This document shows positions 44,035 to 58,612 of a stretch of 64,000 nucleotides of DNA, piece after piece. The notes beneath the pieces are model-generated. The model made no database searches. It saw only the letters and a program-made list of their open reading frames with translations, and was not told the DNA's origin. A program made the position numbers and the translations under genes. Origin of the DNA: Escherichia coli (GTDB lineage Bacteria > Pseudomonadota > Gammaproteobacteria > Enterobacterales > Enterobacteriaceae); assembly GCF_048403405.1 (NCBI RefSeq), contig NZ_CP183129.1; one strand, 5' to 3'. Position 1 is the first letter of the stretch; the number at the start of each line of letters is the position of its first letter.

Positions 44035-44468
44035 GAATGATGAAATGTGTGATGAAAAGCAGAGTGCTGTGCGCACTGGTGTTGTTGCTGGCCGGCTGTG
44101 CCACCTCCAAAGAGGAGCTGCTGCCGGCGGGAAACAGCGACATGATGGCCATCTGGTCCGGCAGACAGGCTGATCCGAACGGTGCGGCGGACAGCCGGAC
44201 GGTGACGGAGACCGCCCGCAGCGCCCTGCGACGCGCCCTGACGAATGATGAAGCCGCGCGCCTTCAGCAGGCGGACACCGCGTATACCCGGACACAAAGC
44301 AGTGAGATCCATCAGCAGTTTCCGCGTCTGCCGAACCCGGACATGGTGATGTATGTGTTCCCGCATCTCTCGGCCGGCAATCTGCCGGTGCCGGGATACA
44401 GTACGGTGTTTCCGTTTTACCATCAAGTGCAGTATGCCCTGCCGGGTGAGCGTGTGGAGGGCTTGTGA
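44031..44468 (+). CDS. Conjugative transfer region lipoprotein (TIGR03751-like)
   Basis: Lipobox LLLAGC. Sits immediately upstream of, and coupled to, the ATPase gene. Confidence 0.6.
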   Translation: MRMMKCVMKSRVLCALVLLLAGCATSKEELLPAGNSDMMAIWSGRQADPNGAADSRTVTETARSALRRALTNDEAARLQQADTAYTRTQSSEIHQQFPRLPNPDMVMYVFPHLSAGNLPVPGYSTVFPFYHQVQYALPGERVEGL

Positions 44469-47335
44469 TGGGATTTTCATTATTCCGCTCACGCCGGAAA
44501 GCGCAGGCGGTTTCTGCTGAAAAAACGGATGAAAACAAGGCTGACAAAACCGTACACCGCAGTACACCGGCAGAGAATGCCGGTTTAGGCCGTCAGCCGC
44601 TTTCCCGGCCGGGAAAAATGACCCGGGCGGATGAGCAGAAGATTTACCATGCGAATCCGTCCTTTATTGATTACCTGCCCTGGGTGGAATTTCTGGATGA
44701 GGAGCAATGCCTGCTGCTTGATGACGGGGTGTCGGTCGGGGCGGTGTATGCCGTTGAGCCGGCGCCGACGGAAGGGCGCTCTGCCGGCCGTCTGCTCGAA
44801 ATCCGGGATGCGGTGGAGGATGCGCTTCAGGACAGTCTGGATGAGCATGATGATAACCCGTGGGTGGTGCAGTTTTTTTGTCAGGATGAGGACGACGTGA
44901 GCGTCACACTGGCCACATTGCGGGACTATATCCTGCCGGCGGCCCGGGGCACCGCGTTTACCGAAGCCTGGCTGACCGAAATGGCGCGTCATTTACGGGG
45001 GATTGCCCGTCCGGAAGGGCTGTTTAAGGACACGGAGGTGACCGGACAACCCTGGCGCGGACAGCAGCGCCGGACCCGGATGGTGGTTTACCGCCGGCTG
45101 GGGAACAGCTATACCGATCCGATGCCGCCGGTGGCGATGCTCAATCAGATGTGTGACCGGCTGGTCAGCAGTCTGGGCAGTGCCGGCGTGCAGTGTGTCC
45201 GCCAGGACGGGAGGCAGGTGCATCAGTGGCTGCTGCGTCATTTCAATCCGGCCCCTGACTGGGTGGACCGGGAGACGCTGTACCGGGAAGGGGCGTACTG
45301 GCCGGCGGCGGAGGAAGCCCCGGGCACCCTGCCGGTGCTGAAGGATTTTGCGGAAACGCTGTGGTTTACCCCGCCCCGGTCGGATGTGGAAAACGGCGTG
45401 TGGTGGTTTGATAACCTGGCGCACGGTGTGGTGAATATCGAAAAACTGCGTAAAGCCCCGGGGCCGGGGCACCTGACCGGGGAGCAGAAGCGCGGTGACA
45501 AAAATATCAATGCGCTGATGGACCTGTTTCCGGAAGGGACGATGCTGTCGATGACCATCGTCACACAGCCTCAGGATACGCTGGAGCAGGAATTTACCCG
45601 GCTGGGGAAAAACTCGGTGGGGGAAAACACCGACTCGCAACGTACCCGCCGGGACGTGGAAACCGCCAGAGGTTTACTGGGGCACCGCCATAAGCTTTAC
45701 CGGGCCTCCCTGTCATTGCTGCTGCGTGCCGGCTCGGTGGAGGAACTGAACAAAAAGCGCGTGGATCTGACGGCCACGCTGCTGAATGCCGGTCTGGAGC
45801 CGGTGAAGCCGGAATATGATGTGGCGCCGCTGAACGGGTATCTGCGTGCCCTGCCGATGTGTTTTGACCCGCAGACGGATAAAAAACACTGGTATACCCG
45901 GCTGACCTGGGTACAGCACCTGGCCGGATTACTGCCGGTGACCGGGCGCACCAGCGGCACCGGGCATCCCGGCTGGAGTTTCTTTAACCGGGGCGGCGGG
46001 GTGCTGACCTTTGATCCGCAGAATAAACAGGATCGTACCCAGAATGCGCATCTGCTGTTATTCGGTCCCACCGGGGCCGGTAAATCCGCCACCTTATGCG
46101 CACAGTTATCGCAGCTGATGGCGGTCCGCCGTCCGCGTCTGTTTATTGCGGAGGCCGGTAACTCCTTTGGTTTACTGGCGGACTATTACGCCAGTCTGGG
46201 GCTGAGTGTCAATAAGGTCAGTGTCAAGCCCGGCAGCGGGGTGCGTCTGCCGCTGTTTGCGGATGCGCATCAGCTGCTGATGATGGATGAACAGCGTCTG
46301 GCACTGAATGCGGATGAACTGCCAGAGACGGACAGTGAATCTGAGGATGATGACGGGCAGCGTGACATTCTGGGGGAAATGGAAATCTCCGCCCGCATGA
46401 TGATCACCGGCGGGGATGTGCGGGAAGAAGCGGAGCTGAAGCGGGCTGACCGGGCGATGATCCGCCGGGCGCTGATGGCGGGGGCCCGGGCGTCTTATGC
46501 CGCCGACCGGCAGATGCTGCCGGCGGATTTGCAGGAGGCGCTGTATGCCCTCTCCCGGGGGGAAGGTGAAGAGGAAGGGCGGGCATTAAATCCGCAGCGC
46601 CGGGCGAAAGCGGCCGAAATGGCGGAATCCCTGGGGATGTTTACCGAACCGGGCAGTTTTGAGCATGAGCTGTTTAATCTGCCGGGGGAGCTGTGGCCGG
46701 AGGCGGATGTGACCCTGATTGATTTGGGGCACCTGGCGCGGGAAGGGTATGAGGCCCAGATGGCGCTGACGATGGTGAGTCTTATCAACTCCATCAACAA
46801 TATTGCCGAGCGGGATCAGTACCGGGCCCGGGACATTAATTTTGTGGTGGATGAGGCGCATATCGTGACGGTCAACCCGCTGTTATCCCCCTATGTGACC
46901 AAAGTGGTGAAAATGTGGCGGAAACTGGGGGCCTGGCTGTGGCTGGCGACCCAGAACCTCGATGACTATCCGGACTGTGCCGAGAAAATGCTCAATATGG
47001 CGGAGTGGTGGGTGTGTCTGACGATGCCGCAGAAAGAGGTGGAGGCAATCGCCCGCTTTAAGACGCTCAGTGAGGAGCAGAAACAGGTGCTGCTGTCCGC
47101 AGCCAAACTCTCCGGCTGTTACACGGAAGGGGTGGTGCTGGCGCGGAAAGTGGAGGCGCTGTTCCGGGTGGTACAGCCGAGCTTATATCTGGCGCTGGGG
47201 ATGACGGAAAAAGAGGAGAAGCAGCAACGGCGGGTGCTGATGGAGCAATACGGATGCAGTGAGCTGGAAGCGGCGTTCAGGGTGGCAGATGAACTTGACC
47301 GGAAACGGGGGTTACCGCCCCGGGTGCCGGGATGA
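44465..47335 (+). CDS. Conjugative transfer ATPase, VirB4/TraC-like (TIGR03744, PFL_4706 family)
   Basis: 956 aa. Walker A LFGPTGAGKS and Walker B-like NFVVDEAH. Confidence 0.85.
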   Translation: MMGFSLFRSRRKAQAVSAEKTDENKADKTVHRSTPAENAGLGRQPLSRPGKMTRADEQKIYHANPSFIDYLPWVEFLDEEQCLLLDDGVSVGAVYAVEPAPTEGRSAGRLLEIRDAVEDALQDSLDEHDDNPWVVQFFCQDEDDVSVTLATLRDYILPAARGTAFTEAWLTEMARHLRGIARPEGLFKDTEVTGQPWRGQQRRTRMVVYRRLGNSYTDPMPPVAMLNQMCDRLVSSLGSAGVQCVRQDGRQVHQWLLRHFNPAPDWVDRETLYREGAYWPAAEEAPGTLPVLKDFAETLWFTPPRSDVENGVWWFDNLAHGVVNIEKLRKAPGPGHLTGEQKRGDKNINALMDLFPEGTMLSMTIVTQPQDTLEQEFTRLGKNSVGENTDSQRTRRDVETARGLLGHRHKLYRASLSLLLRAGSVEELNKKRVDLTATLLNAGLEPVKPEYDVAPLNGYLRALPMCFDPQTDKKHWYTRLTWVQHLAGLLPVTGRTSGTGHPGWSFFNRGGGVLTFDPQNKQDRTQNAHLLLFGPTGAGKSATLCAQLSQLMAVRRPRLFIAEAGNSFGLLADYYASLGLSVNKVSVKPGSGVRLPLFADAHQLLMMDEQRLALNADELPETDSESEDDDGQRDILGEMEISARMMITGGDVREEAELKRADRAMIRRALMAGARASYAADRQMLPADLQEALYALSRGEGEEEGRALNPQRRAKAAEMAESLGMFTEPGSFEHELFNLPGELWPEADVTLIDLGHLAREGYEAQMALTMVSLINSINNIAERDQYRARDINFVVDEAHIVTVNPLLSPYVTKVVKMWRKLGAWLWLATQNLDDYPDCAEKMLNMAEWWVCLTMPQKEVEAIARFKTLSEEQKQVLLSAAKLSGCYTEGVVLARKVEALFRVVQPSLYLALGMTEKEEKQQRRVLMEQYGCSELEAAFRVADELDRKRGLPPRVPG

Positions 47336-47429
47336 TGAAACGGGTGGAGCAGGGAGTGGGTAAACCGTGTTGCAGCACGGCTTACCCGGCCGCTTCATTG
47401 GGTATGTTAAAAAGAGGAAACATGACGTC

Positions 47430-49655
47430 ATGAAAACGACGGGAGTTAAAGTAACGCTTTTGTCGCTGGTTGTCAGTTATTCCTGCGCTTTACAGGCCAA
47501 AAACGTGTCACTGGGGGACACGGCCGTGGCCACGGGGCAGCACAGTACGGCTGTCGGTGAGGGCAGTATGGCGCTGGGGAACAATATGACGGCGGAACAG
47601 GCGCAGGCGGCGATGAAAGCCCAGAATGCCCTGTTGCAGAACAGGGCGCAGGCGCATGAGCAGTACATGCAGACGCAGGCCCTGTTTGACAGTAAATCGC
47701 TGGCGAACAGCAATATTCTGGAGCGTCAGGAAGCGATGAAACCGTTGTTGCAGCAACAGGAGACCCTGGCGGGTCAGCGTACCGCGCAACAGCAGCAGGT
47801 GACACAGGCACAGCAGGTCGCTGACCGGATGGCACAGATTTATGAACGCAATCTGGGGGCGGTTTCACAGATTGTGGATGAGAATTTTGTGGCGTTGTGG
47901 CAGCAGGGGCAGGCTGACCGTCTGGCTCAGGAAGTGAAAAAACGGGTTGAGCAGGATACGTCGGTCAGTAATGACACGCAGTTTTATGTCAGTTATGTTA
48001 ATGCCTATATTGAAGCGAAAACCAGAAGTGCTCTGGTTAATGAAACCATCAAAGAGAAAACCGGTTCTCAGATTACGACCAACTATCAGGGTGTGGCCCT
48101 GTCCCCGGTACTGAGTGCCGGCCACAGTGATAAAGCGATGCTGTGGTCGGATGCGGTCACGGACAGCGAGCAGAAGAAACAATTATCCCGTTTACACCTG
48201 AATACCGCGGCCCTGAAGGGCGTTGCCGGTTATCAGGAAGAGCTGGCCAAAATCGCCCTGATCACCTCTGCGGACGGGAAAAAGAATCTGTATCAGGCTT
48301 ATCAGAAAAATGCCCGGCAGCAAATTGAGCAGGGGCTCACCGGGGTGACAGAGGCCGGGAAGCAGATCCTGTCAGAGCTGTATCTGGATAACATCGATGA
48401 AGGCACCTTTAATCAGATGGTCAGCGGTATTTTCACCCGCTATGAGAATCAGCTGAACTACCTGATCCAGCTGGATAAGGTCAACAGTTTATCGCCGGAC
48501 AGCCCGGATTATGCCAAAGAGTTACAGCAACTGCTGGTACTGGAAAGCCGTCCCCGGGATAACACCGTCGGGCTGAATACCAACCCGGAGGCGCTGAAAC
48601 AAAAAGTGGATCAGTACCTTCAGGACAATGCGCTCAGTCACACACAGGCCATGTCGTCACAGGCCACACAGCTGAAACAGCAGTTATCGGCGGAAAAAGC
48701 CGTCACCGATCAGGCACTGAAGCAGGCAGAAACGCAACTCTCCCGGCTGGAAAAGGATCTCTCCGCGCTGGATACAAAGTTGTCTGATTTGCGTCCGACG
48801 CAATCCGAGCTGGAAAACATCCGGGATCTGGAGAAGGTGAAAGCCGAACTGGCGCAGAAACAGGCGGAATATCAGGCGGCGGATAAAGCCCTGAATGAGG
48901 CGCAGAGTACGCTGAGTCAGGGTAAACAGGCTGTTGCGGTCGGGGATAAGAGTCTGGCGCTGGGCGAAAAATCCGTGGCACTGAGTGTGGATGCCCGGGC
49001 GCTGGCGAAAAACAGTGTGGCACTGGGGGACGGCAGCCTGGCTGACCGGGATAACAGCGTGTCCGTCGGCCGTGAAGGTCAGGAACGTTTTCTGACGCAT
49101 GTGGCGGCCGGCATTGCAAAAACGGATGCGGTCAACAAAGGGCAACTGGATGAGGAGCGGGATGCGCGTATTGCCGGCGATAAGCAGACGCTGAAACAGG
49201 CCATGGACTACACCGATGTGAGCATTCAGTACAGTGAGGCGAAGATAAACAAGCGGATTACGGAAGAGCAGCAGGCCCGTATTGAGGGGGAGGAACAGAC
49301 CCTGGCGGCCGCAAACCGCTATACCGATGAGACGTTCGGGCAGGTGACCCACACGGTGCTGGACAATGCCCGGCAGTATACCGACCAGCGTTTCAGTCAG
49401 CTGGACAATAAAATCAGTCAGGTGGAGAAACGGGCCAATGCGGGGATTGCCGGGGTGACCGCAATATCTTCCATTCCGTATGTGAACAGTGAGCGTTTTT
49501 CGTTCGGGATGGCGATGGGGCATTACCGTGATGCACAGGCGATAGCCACCGGGGTGCAGTATAAGCCGACGGCCAATACCAATGTGCGCCTGAATGCGTC
49601 ATGGAATAACGGCGGCGATACCAGTATCGGCGCCGGGTTTGCGGTGGGCTGGTAA
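47430..49655 (+). CDS. Trimeric autotransporter adhesin (YadA/Oca family)
   Basis: Signal peptide. YadA-head-like repeats (SLGDTAVATGQHSTAVGEGSMALGNN; KSLALGEKSVALSVDARALAKNSVALGDGSLA). Neck motif SVSVGREGQERFLTHVAAGIAKTDAVNKGQL. Long Q/A/L coiled-coil stalk. C-terminal 4-strand anchor AGIAGVTAISSIPYV...GAGFAVGW. Confidence 0.85.
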   Translation: MKTTGVKVTLLSLVVSYSCALQAKNVSLGDTAVATGQHSTAVGEGSMALGNNMTAEQAQAAMKAQNALLQNRAQAHEQYMQTQALFDSKSLANSNILERQEAMKPLLQQQETLAGQRTAQQQQVTQAQQVADRMAQIYERNLGAVSQIVDENFVALWQQGQADRLAQEVKKRVEQDTSVSNDTQFYVSYVNAYIEAKTRSALVNETIKEKTGSQITTNYQGVALSPVLSAGHSDKAMLWSDAVTDSEQKKQLSRLHLNTAALKGVAGYQEELAKIALITSADGKKNLYQAYQKNARQQIEQGLTGVTEAGKQILSELYLDNIDEGTFNQMVSGIFTRYENQLNYLIQLDKVNSLSPDSPDYAKELQQLLVLESRPRDNTVGLNTNPEALKQKVDQYLQDNALSHTQAMSSQATQLKQQLSAEKAVTDQALKQAETQLSRLEKDLSALDTKLSDLRPTQSELENIRDLEKVKAELAQKQAEYQAADKALNEAQSTLSQGKQAVAVGDKSLALGEKSVALSVDARALAKNSVALGDGSLADRDNSVSVGREGQERFLTHVAAGIAKTDAVNKGQLDEERDARIAGDKQTLKQAMDYTDVSIQYSEAKINKRITEEQQARIEGEEQTLAAANRYTDETFGQVTHTVLDNARQYTDQRFSQLDNKISQVEKRANAGIAGVTAISSIPYVNSERFSFGMAMGHYRDAQAIATGVQYKPTANTNVRLNASWNNGGDTSIGAGFAVGW

Positions 49656-49661
49656 CCGGTG

Positions 49662-49688
49662 AAAACCCGCCGGTCACCGGCGGGTTTT
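49662..49688 (+). terminator. Rho-independent terminator after the adhesin gene
   Basis: 12-bp perfect stem AAAACCCGCCGG / CCGGCGGGTTTT with a 3-nt loop. The A- and T-tracts are part of the stem. Confidence 0.7.
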
Positions 49689-49733
49689 GATGCGCTTTTC
49701 TTCTCTCACCGTTCGTTTGTGAGGACTGACCGA

Positions 49734-50174
49734 ATGAAAAAACGATTTTTATCTCTTTCCGGATTGCTGATGCTGTCGCTGTCATGCCTGCCGTTGACCG
49801 CCGGGGCGGCAGTGGTGCTGTATACCACGCAGGATGACGCTCTGCCGCAGACGGACATCCCGTTTGAGGTGGTGTATCTGGATGCGCCTGAACGCCTGCT
49901 GGATGAGGCCCTGCTTCAGCCGGGGACGGAACTGAGTGAAGCGGATGCCCTGCACATCACCGCCCTGTTACAAAGTCCGGCCTGGCAGGCCAGAGAAACG
50001 GCATTACGGCAGGCTTATCAGGGCGTGGTTCAGGCCTGGCAGCTGGGGGTGTCATCTCTGCCGGCGGTCGTCGTTGATGCGCAGTGGGTGGTTTACGGCA
50101 CCACCGATATTGCACAGGCGGTGACGCAGATACAGCAGTACCGGGAACAACAGGAAGGAGGAGGTCAACCATGA
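49734..50174 (+). CDS. ICE protein, PFL_4709 family-like (TIGR03757 / DUF1525)
   Basis: Signal peptide MKKRFLSLSGLLMLSLSCLPLTAGA, syntenic slot, ATGA overlap with the next gene. Confidence 0.55.
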   Translation: MKKRFLSLSGLLMLSLSCLPLTAGAAVVLYTTQDDALPQTDIPFEVVYLDAPERLLDEALLQPGTELSEADALHITALLQSPAWQARETALRQAYQGVVQAWQLGVSSLPAVVVDAQWVVYGTTDIAQAVTQIQQYREQQEGGGQP

Positions 50175-55957: not shown

Positions 55958-56176
55958 CGTTGCTTAATGCAACATTGCCAATGCTTCGGTTGTCTGAGAG
56001 AAGCGCCTACGGGTGACAACAATGCCAATCCGGCAATCTGAGAGGAACGCCTACGGGTGATTGCCACTGCCAATCCTCGGGTCATCTGAGACGAGGGCCT
56101 ACGGGCGATGACAGAACTCCGTTCGTCCTTGAAATCGACGGAGGGTGATAACAGAATAGCGTTATCATCAGGATTA
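55958..56176 (+). ncRNA. Tandem pseudoknot array 1 (three units plus two hairpins), STAXI-like
   Basis: Units start at 55977, 56024 and 56069, each GCCAAT-S1-S2-CTGAGA-S1'-GCCTACGGG-S2'. Helix pairs are GCTTC/GAAGC and GTTGTC/GACAAC; CC/GG and GGCAATC/GATTGCC; CCTCG/CGAGG and GTCATC/GATGAC. Hairpins lie at 56117-56143 and 56146-56167. Confidence 0.65.
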
Positions 56177-58391: not shown

Positions 58392-58612
58392 CGTTGCGTA
58401 ATGCAACTTGCCAATGCTTCGGTTGTCTGAGAGAAGCGCCTACGGGTGACAACAATGCCAATGTTCCGGCAATCTGAGAGGAACGCCTACGGGTGATTGC
58501 CACTGCCAATCCTCGGGTCATCTGAGACGGGAGCCTACGGGCGATGACAGAACTCCGTTCGTCCTTGAAATCGACGGAGGGTGATAACAGAATAGCGTTA
58601 TCATCAGGATTA
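58392..58612 (+). ncRNA. Tandem pseudoknot array 2, STAXI-like (direct repeat of 55958-56176)
   Basis: Near-identical to array 1. Unit 2 has the fuller S1 helix GTTCC/GGAAC (3-nt indel relative to array 1). The array is followed by TTTTT. Confidence 0.65.

Follow-up and report, generated by a model that had tools for sequence, protein, structure and literature searches.

TaaP of ICEPm1 resides in a variable slot of the conjugative transfer operon: comparison with surface adhesins of other DNA-transfer gene clusters

Stable mating contacts in liquid are poorly understood for integrative conjugative elements (ICEs) of the ICEclc/PFGI-1 class as well as for rigid-pilus plasmids. Among Enterobacterales, virulence and resistance genes are spread by ICEPm1 as well as by the IncX plasmids. 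ICEPm1 encodes the trimeric autotransporter adhesin (TAA) TaaP, which in Proteus mirabilis HI4320 is PMI2575, and the protein has reportedly been detected on the P. mirabilis cell surface. Its functions in the literature are adhesion to the host and autoaggregation: in later papers, TaaP is described as an adhesin and autoagglutinin encoded on ICEPm1, and the element as a pathogenicity island with siderophore genes and TaaP. Reviews citing Alamuri et al. (2010) name autoaggregation and extracellular matrix binding as TaaP phenotypes.

Here, we compare this system with a locus in a window of 64,000 nucleotides of Escherichia coli DNA. The list of open reading frames of the window contains a frame spanning 47367-49655 on the plus strand. 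Starting with the ATG at 47430, it encodes 741 aa and ends at 49655, and RefSeq gives the same extent for the CDS of an identical gene.

47430-49655, plus strand: taaP coding sequence, 741-aa trimeric autotransporter adhesin (type Vc), from domain profiles, PDB matches and RefSeq identity
47413-47418, plus strand: Shine-Dalgarno-like AGAGGA, 11 nt 5' of the ATG, from direct sequence reading

For E. coli M24, RefSeq lists WP_004239700.1 ("trimeric autotransporter adhesin TaaP"), with which the encoded protein shares 100% identity. In blastn, the window DNA matches E. coli M24 and P. mirabilis ATCC 29906 with identities of 99.86-99.9%, the value for the latter being 99.86%. Judged by this identity, 47430-49655 is taaP of ICEPm1, an adhesin gene that had been named and examined experimentally before, and it shows no difference from it at the sequence level. 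The first-pass annotation of the window had not identified 47430-49655 as TaaP of ICEPm1. The surrounding element is also the same one in terms of its PFGI-1-class type IV secretion system (T4SS) gene set, its NRPS/siderophore cargo and, in the E. coli copy, the tRNA-Phe site. The window carries the T4SS set TIGR03746, 03749, 03752, 03744, 03757, 03756, 03755 and TraG_N in conserved order; the set is complete in an identical E. coli copy, where pilL2, TraD, a protein with a TraI domain and, adjoining tRNA-Phe, an integrase are also present. From this gene content, the element is classified as a PFGI-1/ICEclc-class (MPF_G) ICE. The gene in itself is already known and adds nothing new; the possible importance lies in the comparative pattern around it. 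Beyond the known TaaP, the comparison adds that the slot is a cargo hotspot, that passengers are exchanged, that the gene has diverged in step with the backbone, and that IncX-like plasmids carry homologues. Taken as a whole, our explanation is that TaaP of ICEPm1 occupies a hotspot slot, is old and selected, has an exchangeable passenger and may serve mating contacts, and with some reserve we regard it as probable.

The domain architecture was determined with the curated Pfam cut-offs as threshold, which the YadA head, stalk and anchor each exceed. YadA_head (PF05658) scores 53 bits against a cut-off of 25 with its best stretch at residues 526-547, YadA_anchor (PF03895) reaches 42 bits against 22.7 at residues 687-741, and YadA_stalk (PF05662) is borderline with 28.8 against 28.4 bits at residues 556-575. 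In the PDB search, solved TAA structures align with residues 483-741, where head, neck and stalk structures cover 483-681 and the YadA/Hia anchor structures 2lme, 2gr7 and 3emo match the C-terminal anchor. The structure model is a monomer with a mean pLDDT of 50.6 (below 50 in the anchor region, and 72-92 in two long helices only), of which the secondary-structure layout alone was used. The signal peptide was assigned by inspection only (MKTTGVK, a hydrophobic core, then ALQA followed by KN), and residues 24-59 align with the N-terminal repeats of the plasmid homologues P0022 and P0023, which match Pfam YadA_head.

47430-47498, plus strand: predicted Sec-type signal peptide, residues 1-23, by inspection; likely cut after ALQA, model helix at 4-20
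47499-47606, plus strand: N-terminal YadA-head-like beta repeats, residues 24-59; model strands at 25-49 and homologue alignment
47607-48914, plus strand: helical passenger, residues 60-495, about 435 aa, from the predicted model
48915-49154, plus strand: second YadA head repeat block and neck, residues 496-575; Pfam and PDB 2yo0, 7o23, 1p9h
49155-49394, plus strand: coiled-coil stalk, residues 576-655; model helix 570-671 and YadA stalk structures 3h7x, 3lt7
49395-49652, plus strand: membrane anchor, residues 656-741; YadA_anchor 42 bits and PDB 2lme, 2gr7

The order is thus signal peptide, mini-head, helical passenger, second head, neck, stalk and anchor, where the passenger in the model runs from a coiled coil through a helical core (approximately 151-405; dN/dS 0.156) into a coiled coil again. 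Residues 60-495 gave no match in Pfam or PDB. By its predicted anchor, head, neck/stalk and signal peptide, TaaP is a trimeric autotransporter of type Vc and of the YadA family. It has the head repeats, neck, coiled-coil stalk and C-terminal four-strand anchor in common with YadA, the Yersinia prototype, whereas nothing comparable to residues 60-495 is present in YadA or among the solved structures. Also, YadA is encoded on the pYV virulence plasmid, and TaaP inside a transfer operon.

The immediate neighbourhood of the gene is as follows.

44465-47335, plus strand: traC, PFL_4706-type VirB4-like conjugative transfer ATPase; TIGR03744 with 1355 bits and Pfam TraC_F_IV
47358-47387, plus strand: strong hairpin without U-tract in the traC-taaP spacer, from folding; inside the part exchanged between passenger types
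49662-49688, plus strand: terminator-like GC-rich hairpin followed by UUUU; -23.8 kcal/mol, z = -3.1
49734-50174, plus strand: TIGR03757 (PFL_4709-family, DUF1525) ICE protein; 96 bits

RefSeq names the traC neighbour "conjugative transfer ATPase". All three genes are on the same strand, and taaP is separated by 94 bp from traC and by 78 bp from the TIGR03757 gene. When folded, the complete 94-nt upstream spacer reaches -34.1 kcal/mol (z = -3.4). A scan of this spacer gave no promoter-like site, which is compatible with read-through from traC, although taaP is itself flanked by the upstream hairpin and a strong terminator. The downstream hairpin, which stands between taaP and the following T4SS genes, was missed by a consensus terminator scan and was detected by direct folding. 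It travels together with the anchor-coding end of taaP. With GC 0.553 and GC3 0.66, taaP is within or near the ranges of the backbone genes (GC 0.54-0.61, GC3 0.65-0.74). Several statements of the first-pass annotation are in good agreement with these data, namely a 741-aa YadA-family adhesin between the VirB4-like ATPase and the PFL_4709-family gene, the common strand and similar composition, an upstream hairpin at about 47357-47386 (found one position further on), and a strong terminator at 49662-49688. Its simple domain layout of head, neck, long coiled coil and anchor was right in the YadA parts and not in their order, as a second head and the helical passenger of about 435 aa are present.

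The surroundings were compared across 80 related ICE loci. The distance from traC to the TIGR03757 gene varies from 72 bp, where the slot is empty in Photorhabdus, to more than 10 kb, and its contents include restriction-modification systems, defence genes, regulators and toxins, with contact-dependent toxins (a CdiA-like protein and Rhs) in Xenorhabdus ICEs. A search with the anchor profile found the YadA anchor at this place in the ICEPm1 clade only. This shows that a single variable slot, with traC as its left and the TIGR03757 gene as its right boundary, serves as a cargo hotspot in the MPF_G operon. The first-pass annotation had assumed a canonical order in which the ATPase is closely followed by the 4709-4711 genes, regarded the adhesin as a module insertion ameliorated to backbone composition, and proposed a survey of related ICEs. 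This order holds approximately only, as most related ICEs have at least one intervening conserved ORF, of about 125 aa, after traC. The insertion itself is borne out by the survey: the anchor is not universal, the slot is empty in Photorhabdus and elsewhere houses unrelated cargo. Amelioration fits the GC3 value as well as a synonymous divergence equal to that of traC. Two other placements were rejected in this comparison: taaP as a universal backbone gene, by the empty or otherwise filled slots and the clade-limited anchor, and taaP as a recent insertion, by its dS.

The dS of taaP is 0.196, compared to 0.197 for traC, and its dN/dS of 0.118 is in the range of the T4SS genes (0.07-0.15). An intact TAA is kept in all 26 E. 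coli copies of the ICEPm1 clade, mouse-gut strains included. Since dS equals that of traC, dN/dS is low and the gene is intact in every copy, taaP is an old acquisition that is held under purifying selection together with the backbone. An alternative is a decaying remnant, unexpressed and without current function. Nothing speaks for it except the strong terminator and a spacer in which no promoter of its own is recognisable; the intact 741-codon ORF with its Shine-Dalgarno motif, the selection at a dS of 0.196, the 26 intact copies and the published phenotypes all speak against it, and we consider a remnant extremely improbable.

At the same locus, a second, low-GC type of passenger was found, which has the anchor in common with the first.

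47324-49396, plus strand: segment replaced between the passenger types, comprising leader, signal peptide and the whole passenger, from blastn against the type-2 loci L002 and L003

In these blastn comparisons, the flanks are 90-93.5% identical, stop at about 47323 and restart at 49397, and the aligned anchor is approximately 95% identical between taaP and the type-2 alleles. The type-2 alleles have a different hairpin in place of 47358-47387. The downstream hairpin is kept in type-2 loci and missing from empty-slot ICEs. Judged by these breakpoints, recombination at the traC end and at the conserved anchor can exchange the passenger. One may read such a swap as a change of recognition specificity rather than of host target: homotypic, passenger-specific binding would then clump cells with the same element or of the same type, or exclude others. 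This is in line with the homotypic aggregation of TAAs, which can exclude cells with a dissimilar TAA, with two unrelated passengers on one anchor at one locus, with in-frame length variants of 741, 691 and 680 aa, and with the CdiA-like protein and Rhs in the same hotspot of Xenorhabdus ICEs. However, the TaaP-type passenger is under purifying and not diversifying selection (dN/dS 0.12-0.21 per segment), and just two passenger types occur among the 26 E. coli elements. We thus regard a self-recognition module as unlikely.

Homologues of the TaaP passenger are rare, with only six matches among 1.84 billion representative proteins. The only distant ones (P0022-P0025) are all located on IncX-like plasmids after VirB11/VirD4-Cag12-TrbM, at the tail of a VirB-type T4SS operon, and P0023 aligns with TaaP along its entire length at 30% identity (E = 2e-89) and has its domains in the same order. 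Like TaaP, these TAAs and related YadA-like genes in pRPEC180_47 (IncX1), pLG26p3 (IncX3) and pU90-1 are on the strand of the transfer operon, where they are the last or near-last gene; the machinery, in contrast, is MPF_T instead of MPF_G, and TrbM/Cag12 takes the place of TraC as the neighbour. In some IncX TAAs, the passenger is an ordinary YadA head, and only the anchor half is common to them and TaaP. A further candidate, the TAA of an Acinetobacter plasmid, was rejected as too weak with 25% identity over the passenger and a position near traN on the opposite strand; this gene spans the record origin. The TaaP-type passenger was thus found on conjugative elements only, inside or at the end of a T4SS cluster of two unrelated machineries.

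The slot is also used by adhesins of other secretion subclasses. In two Xenorhabdus ICE clades that are separate on the TraC tree, type Va and type Ve autotransporters are located after traC and before TIGR03757, on the same strand as in the case of TaaP. They are the sole cargo in several loci, and the only large cargo in the type Va loci, but their passengers are unrelated to that of TaaP. The type Va assignment is based on the C-terminal 290 aa of the 827-928-aa ORFs, which alone score above the cut-off of PF03797; profile scans of the whole proteins gave only noise from the Pro-rich linker. Among 11 sampled plasmid TAAs, eight lie in or beside a T4SS cluster, including an F-type arrangement traV-TAA-dsbC-traC, and three, Saa included, are away from any T4SS; plasmid TAAs such as Saa are found among virulence genes. 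The three closest TAAs outside the family are chromosomal with no T4SS in the vicinity.

The first-pass annotation had offered two functions, host-adhesion cargo and mating-pair stabilisation or aggregation. On this background, TaaP may be pure host-colonisation cargo, i.e., a virulence or colonisation adhesin in a permissive ICE hotspot that helps the host and has no role in DNA transfer. The benefit would go to the host bacterium in bladder, gut or biofilm and hence indirectly to the element. The phenotypes and the pathogenicity island description in the literature are in agreement with this, as are the general use of the slot for defence genes, regulators and toxins and the location of other plasmid TAAs, e.g., Saa. 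It is less easily reconciled with a passenger restricted to conjugative elements and always encoded inside the T4SS cluster or at its end, in two unrelated machineries, with an intact TAA both in urinary isolates and in mouse-gut E. coli, and with the convergence of three classes of type V protein on one slot. We give this reading a substantial chance, short of even.

The alternative is that adhesion also serves conjugation. From the biology of the TAA family in the literature, the Sec signal peptide would take TaaP to the periplasm, three C-terminal anchors would build one outer-membrane barrel, and the passenger would be exported through it as a trimeric fibre that causes autoagglutination of the cells and their attachment to host matrix. 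T4SS-expressing cells that clump or attach to a surface by means of the adhesin might then make more productive conjugation contacts in liquid or under flow, in addition to any benefit in host colonisation, and conjugative elements would repeatedly have taken up TaaP-family and other type V adhesins as accessory contact modules. From the passenger homologues at T4SS tails, the type Va/Ve proteins in the slot and the eight of 11 plasmid TAAs, a role in mating or aggregation appears plausible. The position within a transfer cluster, between traC and TIGR03757 for taaP and likewise in MPF_T clusters for its relatives, was found directly. We further count in favour that synthetic adhesins increase liquid conjugation 28-108-fold and that TrbM/Pep neighbours represent adhesin-like conjugation enhancers.

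Several observations count against a mating role. YadA and Eib aggregation is TAA-to-TAA, and TAA-free cells failed to co-sediment; such homotypic aggregation would clump donor with donor and not with the recipient. The long TAA BadA reportedly interferes with a VirB/D4 T4SS. As the slot also houses defence genes and toxins, residence there alone implies no transfer function. On plasmids of 30-45 kb, the T4SS makes up about one third of the replicon; three of the 11 plasmid TAAs are away from it, and a strong terminator stands between taaP and the downstream T4SS genes. Due to common ancestry of the IncX-like cases, only about four to five independent events remain. That taaP is kept in the transfer operon since adhesion raises conjugation contacts is proposed as a serious possibility, on which we would not quite place even odds. 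Somewhat more tentative still is the general form, in which type V adhesins would be a recurrent accessory module, independently recruited to at least three T4SS architectures and selected for conjugation contact, with the passenger setting partner or niche specificity. The architectures meant are MPF_G ICEs, MPF_T IncX-like and related plasmids, and an F-type MOBH plasmid.

In the literature, we did not find the IncX-like T4SS-tail homologues, the use of the slot by type Va/Ve proteins in Xenorhabdus or the adjacency of plasmid TAAs and T4SS described; for IncX and YadA, judged by titles alone, no title about TAAs was found. The recurrent presence of the TaaP family and other surface adhesins in DNA-transfer gene clusters is apparently a new observation. 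If operon-encoded adhesins make transfer more frequent in urine, gut fluid or biofilm, the places and the recipients that these elements reach would in part depend on them. They would also explain the conservation of a "virulence adhesin" in commensal strains and would offer a surface-exposed target for blocking transfer.

Known adhesins associated with conjugation are Pep of pKM101, the TrbM/KikA family, the enterococcal aggregation substance, TraN of F and PilV of R64. Pep and TrbM enhance conjugation, and engineered cell-cell adhesion raises liquid mating. TaaP has no sequence relationship to any of these proteins, and the aggregation of model TAAs is homotypic and not aimed at recipients. 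What TaaP has in common with all of them is a predicted exposure on the cell surface and a gene encoded within the transfer cluster.

The ORF listing of the window contains an open reading frame at 47367-49655 (+), in which the taaP start is the ATG at 47430, preceded by an AGAGGA Shine-Dalgarno sequence and identical to the RefSeq start of the same gene. The first-pass annotation had described, from sequence alone, a 741-aa YadA-family adhesin between a VirB4-like ATPase and a PFL_4709-family gene, with a hairpin upstream and a strong terminator downstream. ORF, Shine-Dalgarno sequence, domain and profile matches as well as folding are in good agreement with this arrangement:

44465-47335: traC, PFL_4706-type TraC ATPase (TIGR03744, 1355 bits), 5' neighbour of taaP
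47358-47387: hairpin 5' of taaP, real on folding, without a U-tract
47430-49655 (+): taaP, trimeric autotransporter adhesin (TAA, type Vc) of 741 aa
49662-49688: hairpin 3' of taaP, -23.8 kcal/mol, z = -3.1, UUUU after the stem; it looks like a terminator
49734-50174: TIGR03757 gene, 3' neighbour, followed by TIGR03756, TIGR03755 and a TraG_N protein (profile matches)

A scan found no promoter-like site between the 3' hairpin and the essential T4SS genes (49662-49733). A strong terminator lies between taaP and these genes, though ICEPm1 is reportedly self-transmissible.

Pfam matches of TaaP comprise YadA_head (53 bits), YadA_anchor (42 bits) and YadA_stalk, the latter barely over the cut-off at 28.8 bits; the NCBIfam models YadA and BimA match in part. 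TAA structures in the PDB match residues 483-741 only, while residues 60-495 have no match in Pfam or PDB. A monomer model of poor quality (mean pLDDT 50.6) shows two confident long helices around a low-confidence helical region. Since the family features are present, type Vc secretion and surface display of TaaP are predicted to follow.

Several E. coli chromosomes carry copies of the 6.7-kb stretch from traC to TIGR03756 with 100% identity; in these, the gene has the RefSeq name taaP and its product is called 'trimeric autotransporter adhesin TaaP'. Identity amounts to 99.9% between window 24465-64000 and the E. coli M24 copy, and to 99.86% between 34465-57331 and P. mirabilis ATCC 29906. 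In E. coli M24, taaP is surrounded by a full PFGI-1-class ICE gene set, and the element also carries NRPS/siderophore cargo, a TraI-domain protein and an integrase adjoining tRNA-Phe. Judged by these identities, the adhesin was known before, as TaaP of ICEPm1. We take it to be PMI2575, inside the ICEPm1 gene range. Published papers describe ICEPm1 as integrating at tRNA-Phe and as self-transmissible, and the literature attributes autoaggregation and matrix binding to TaaP.

A long low-GC block (window 4000-31000, GC 0.26-0.42) lies inside the element and adjoins the high-GC transfer module. Its portion closest to this module is annotated, in the identical E. coli copy, with NRPS, methyltransferase, MFS transporter and TonB receptor genes, which are consistent with the ICEPm1 siderophore cargo. 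Given its high GC beside this block, the transfer module must have arisen in a genome unlike that of Proteus. A repeat of ~220 bp (94-97% alike) occurs at 55958-56176 and 58392-58612, and a small length difference to the E. coli M24 copy is located near 56017-56061.

The interval between traC and the TIGR03757 gene, here called the slot, was surveyed in 80 loci, fetched by TraC alignment and covering about 70 species of Enterobacterales. The gap is smallest in five Photorhabdus ICEs, whose slot is empty (72 bp), and largest at >10 kb; the median is ~2.7 kb. In other E. coli ICEs of the same class the slot contains small hypothetical genes, an AraC regulator or a methylase/McrBC-type defence cluster. 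In this survey, a profile of diverse YadA anchors matches ICEPm1-clade loci only. As the gap size varies and the anchor is confined to one clade, the adhesin is specific to the ICEPm1 lineage and its seat is a true hotspot for cargo; related ICEs do not carry it universally, as a module added to the backbone would lead one to expect.

In some Enterobacteriaceae ICEs (L005:10801-16630, L024:13539-20216) a methylase, Eco57I-like enzyme, AAA ATPase and McrC-type defence cluster fill the slot, and in others it holds YobI-like NTPase, HATPase_c_3 or AAA_13 proteins; the hotspot thus doubles as a defence island. Directly 3' of traC, a conserved ORF of ~125 aa without family match is present in most ICEs of this class (L004:9703-10083 and about 50 other loci) and missing in ICEPm1 and in the Xenorhabdus clade with an inverse autotransporter.

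The insertion suggested by the first-pass annotation was said to resemble the backbone in composition, which holds for taaP (GC 0.553, GC3 0.66 versus a backbone GC3 of 0.65-0.74). Its age was assessed against a ~93%-identical allele from mouse-gut E. coli M19.

Divergence of taaP and neighbouring genes from E. coli M19
taaP: dS 0.196, dN/dS 0.118
traC: dS 0.197, dN/dS 0.074
TIGR03757: dS 0.215, dN/dS 0.146
TIGR03756: dS 0.237, dN/dS 0.070
TIGR03755: dS 0.308, dN/dS 0.121

A recent arrival is contradicted by the equal dS of taaP and traC; the purifying dN/dS and an intact TAA in the slot of all 26 ICEPm1-clade elements in complete E. coli genomes point to maintenance of the gene. The helical core, the middle of residues 60-495, is constrained too (dN/dS 0.156). 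In three of the 26 elements, the slot encodes another protein (503 or 597 aa in the two measured). Its passenger is unrelated to that of TaaP (36-39% overall identity) and its last ~86 residues are about 95% identical. On the DNA level, backbone-like flanks of 90-93.5% identity end at window 47323, twelve bases ahead of the traC stop, and resume at 49397; therefore the swapped unit comprises leader, signal peptide and the whole passenger. Anchor and terminator belong to the conserved part of the locus. A strong hairpin directly follows the traC stop in both types, a different one in each. Owing to its low GC (0.39-0.40, GC3 0.35-0.36), the second passenger looks like a later import. TaaP-type proteins vary in frame between 741, 691 and 680 aa. 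Together, the comparisons support an insertion, with taaP as an old, selectively maintained occupant of the hotspot whose passenger is exchangeable.

An exhaustive HMMER search with TaaP residues 60-480 against 1.84 billion representative proteins gave six matches, namely four TaaP or TaaP fragments and the distant homologues P0022 and P0023. P0023 aligns end to end with TaaP (30% identity, E = 2e-89) and has the same domain order; its identity to P0022 and to two more relatives, P0024 and P0025, amounts to 46-48%. All four genes lie 3' of VirB8-VirB9-VirB10-VirB11, (VirD4), Cag12 and TrbM on the same strand, on backbones with topoisomerase III, H-NS, Hha and ParA; Salmonella enterica is the recorded source for three of four protein clusters (P0022, P0024). 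On IncX-like plasmid contigs, genes for full-length TaaP homologues (671-829 aa) occupy the last position, or one close to it, in VirB-type T4SS operons:

L088:8001-10012
L089:8001-10286
L093:10001-12490
L096:6513-9002

In annotated IncX1, IncX3 and IncX4 plasmids, the same position is taken by a YadA-like gene. As all distant relatives follow T4SS genes on IncX-like plasmids, the TaaP-type passenger was found only on conjugative elements, across two unrelated transfer machineries. We found no description of these operon-tail homologues in the open-access literature, nor of the recurrent placement of TaaP-family and other type V adhesins inside transfer operons.

Two further adhesin types occupy the slot in Xenorhabdus ICEs:

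L049:13661-16909 and L058:12831-16079, just 3' of traC, same strand: type Ve, 1082-aa inverse autotransporter of intimin/invasin type (IAT_beta 286 bits, five Big_1, Invasin_D3)
L009:13490-16276, L011:10962-13472 and L013:13465-15948: type Va, classical autotransporter of 827-928 aa

The type Ve gene occurs in about a dozen ICEs, including about ten more loci (L046, L047, L051, L053, L054, L059, L061, L062, L072, L073), and is the sole gene of the slot in L058 and L061. The type Va proteins consist of a signal peptide, a repeat-rich passenger without family match, a long PEPK-repeat linker and a PF03797 beta-domain ending in KYRF (C-terminal 290 aa, 27.6-43.1 bits, cut-off 26). Several loci have no other cargo in the slot than the adhesin (for type Va, no other large cargo). 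The TraC tree places carriers of Va, Vc and Ve in three clades apart from one another, and the slots of their closest outgroups are empty or nearly so. Xenorhabdus slots also hold contact-dependent weapons (a CdiA-like TPS protein with nuclease tip, PAAR-Rhs toxins, T6SS TssF/VgrG), at L048:13174-17835 (-), L050:16295-20695 (-) and L052:15136-18858.

The TaaP stalk-anchor region matches 431 plasmid records, and in 8 of the 11 plasmid contexts inspected the TAA lies in or beside a T4SS cluster:

IncX-type plasmids and pYptb32953: 3' of TrbM/Cag12 or VirD4
Morganella morganii pMM2467-2 (L101:3861-5408) and Proteus terrae pZF1-cfr (L110:5029-6558): directly 5' of VirB1-VirB2-VirB3/4, same strand, a third placement relative to a VirB-type cluster
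Citrobacter freundii pKPC_CAV1321-244 (L106:3873-5471), a 244-kb KPC plasmid with F-type (MOBH) transfer operon: 532-aa YadA-like gene between traV and dsbC-traC

Many large plasmids of Citrobacter, Klebsiella and Enterobacter contain matches like the last. The other three TAAs, Saa on pO113 and those of two IncF plasmids, are not at a T4SS cluster. The three nearest TAAs that do not belong to the TaaP family served as a control; all are chromosomal and lack a T4SS gene within 10 kb.

This recurrent placement turns the mating-adhesin role proposed in the first-pass annotation into a concrete, cheaply testable hypothesis. [quoted passage not shown] TrbM-family genes adjoin the IncX TAAs. Since the IncX-like cases share ancestry, the independent events number only about four or five. 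Serious objections stand against a mating role: the slot also takes defence genes, and T4SS adjacency is not improbable on small plasmids. A long TAA reportedly interferes with a VirB/D4 system. In the known systems YadA and Eib, aggregation proceeds from TAA to TAA and TAA-free cells did not co-sediment, which also counts against such a role.
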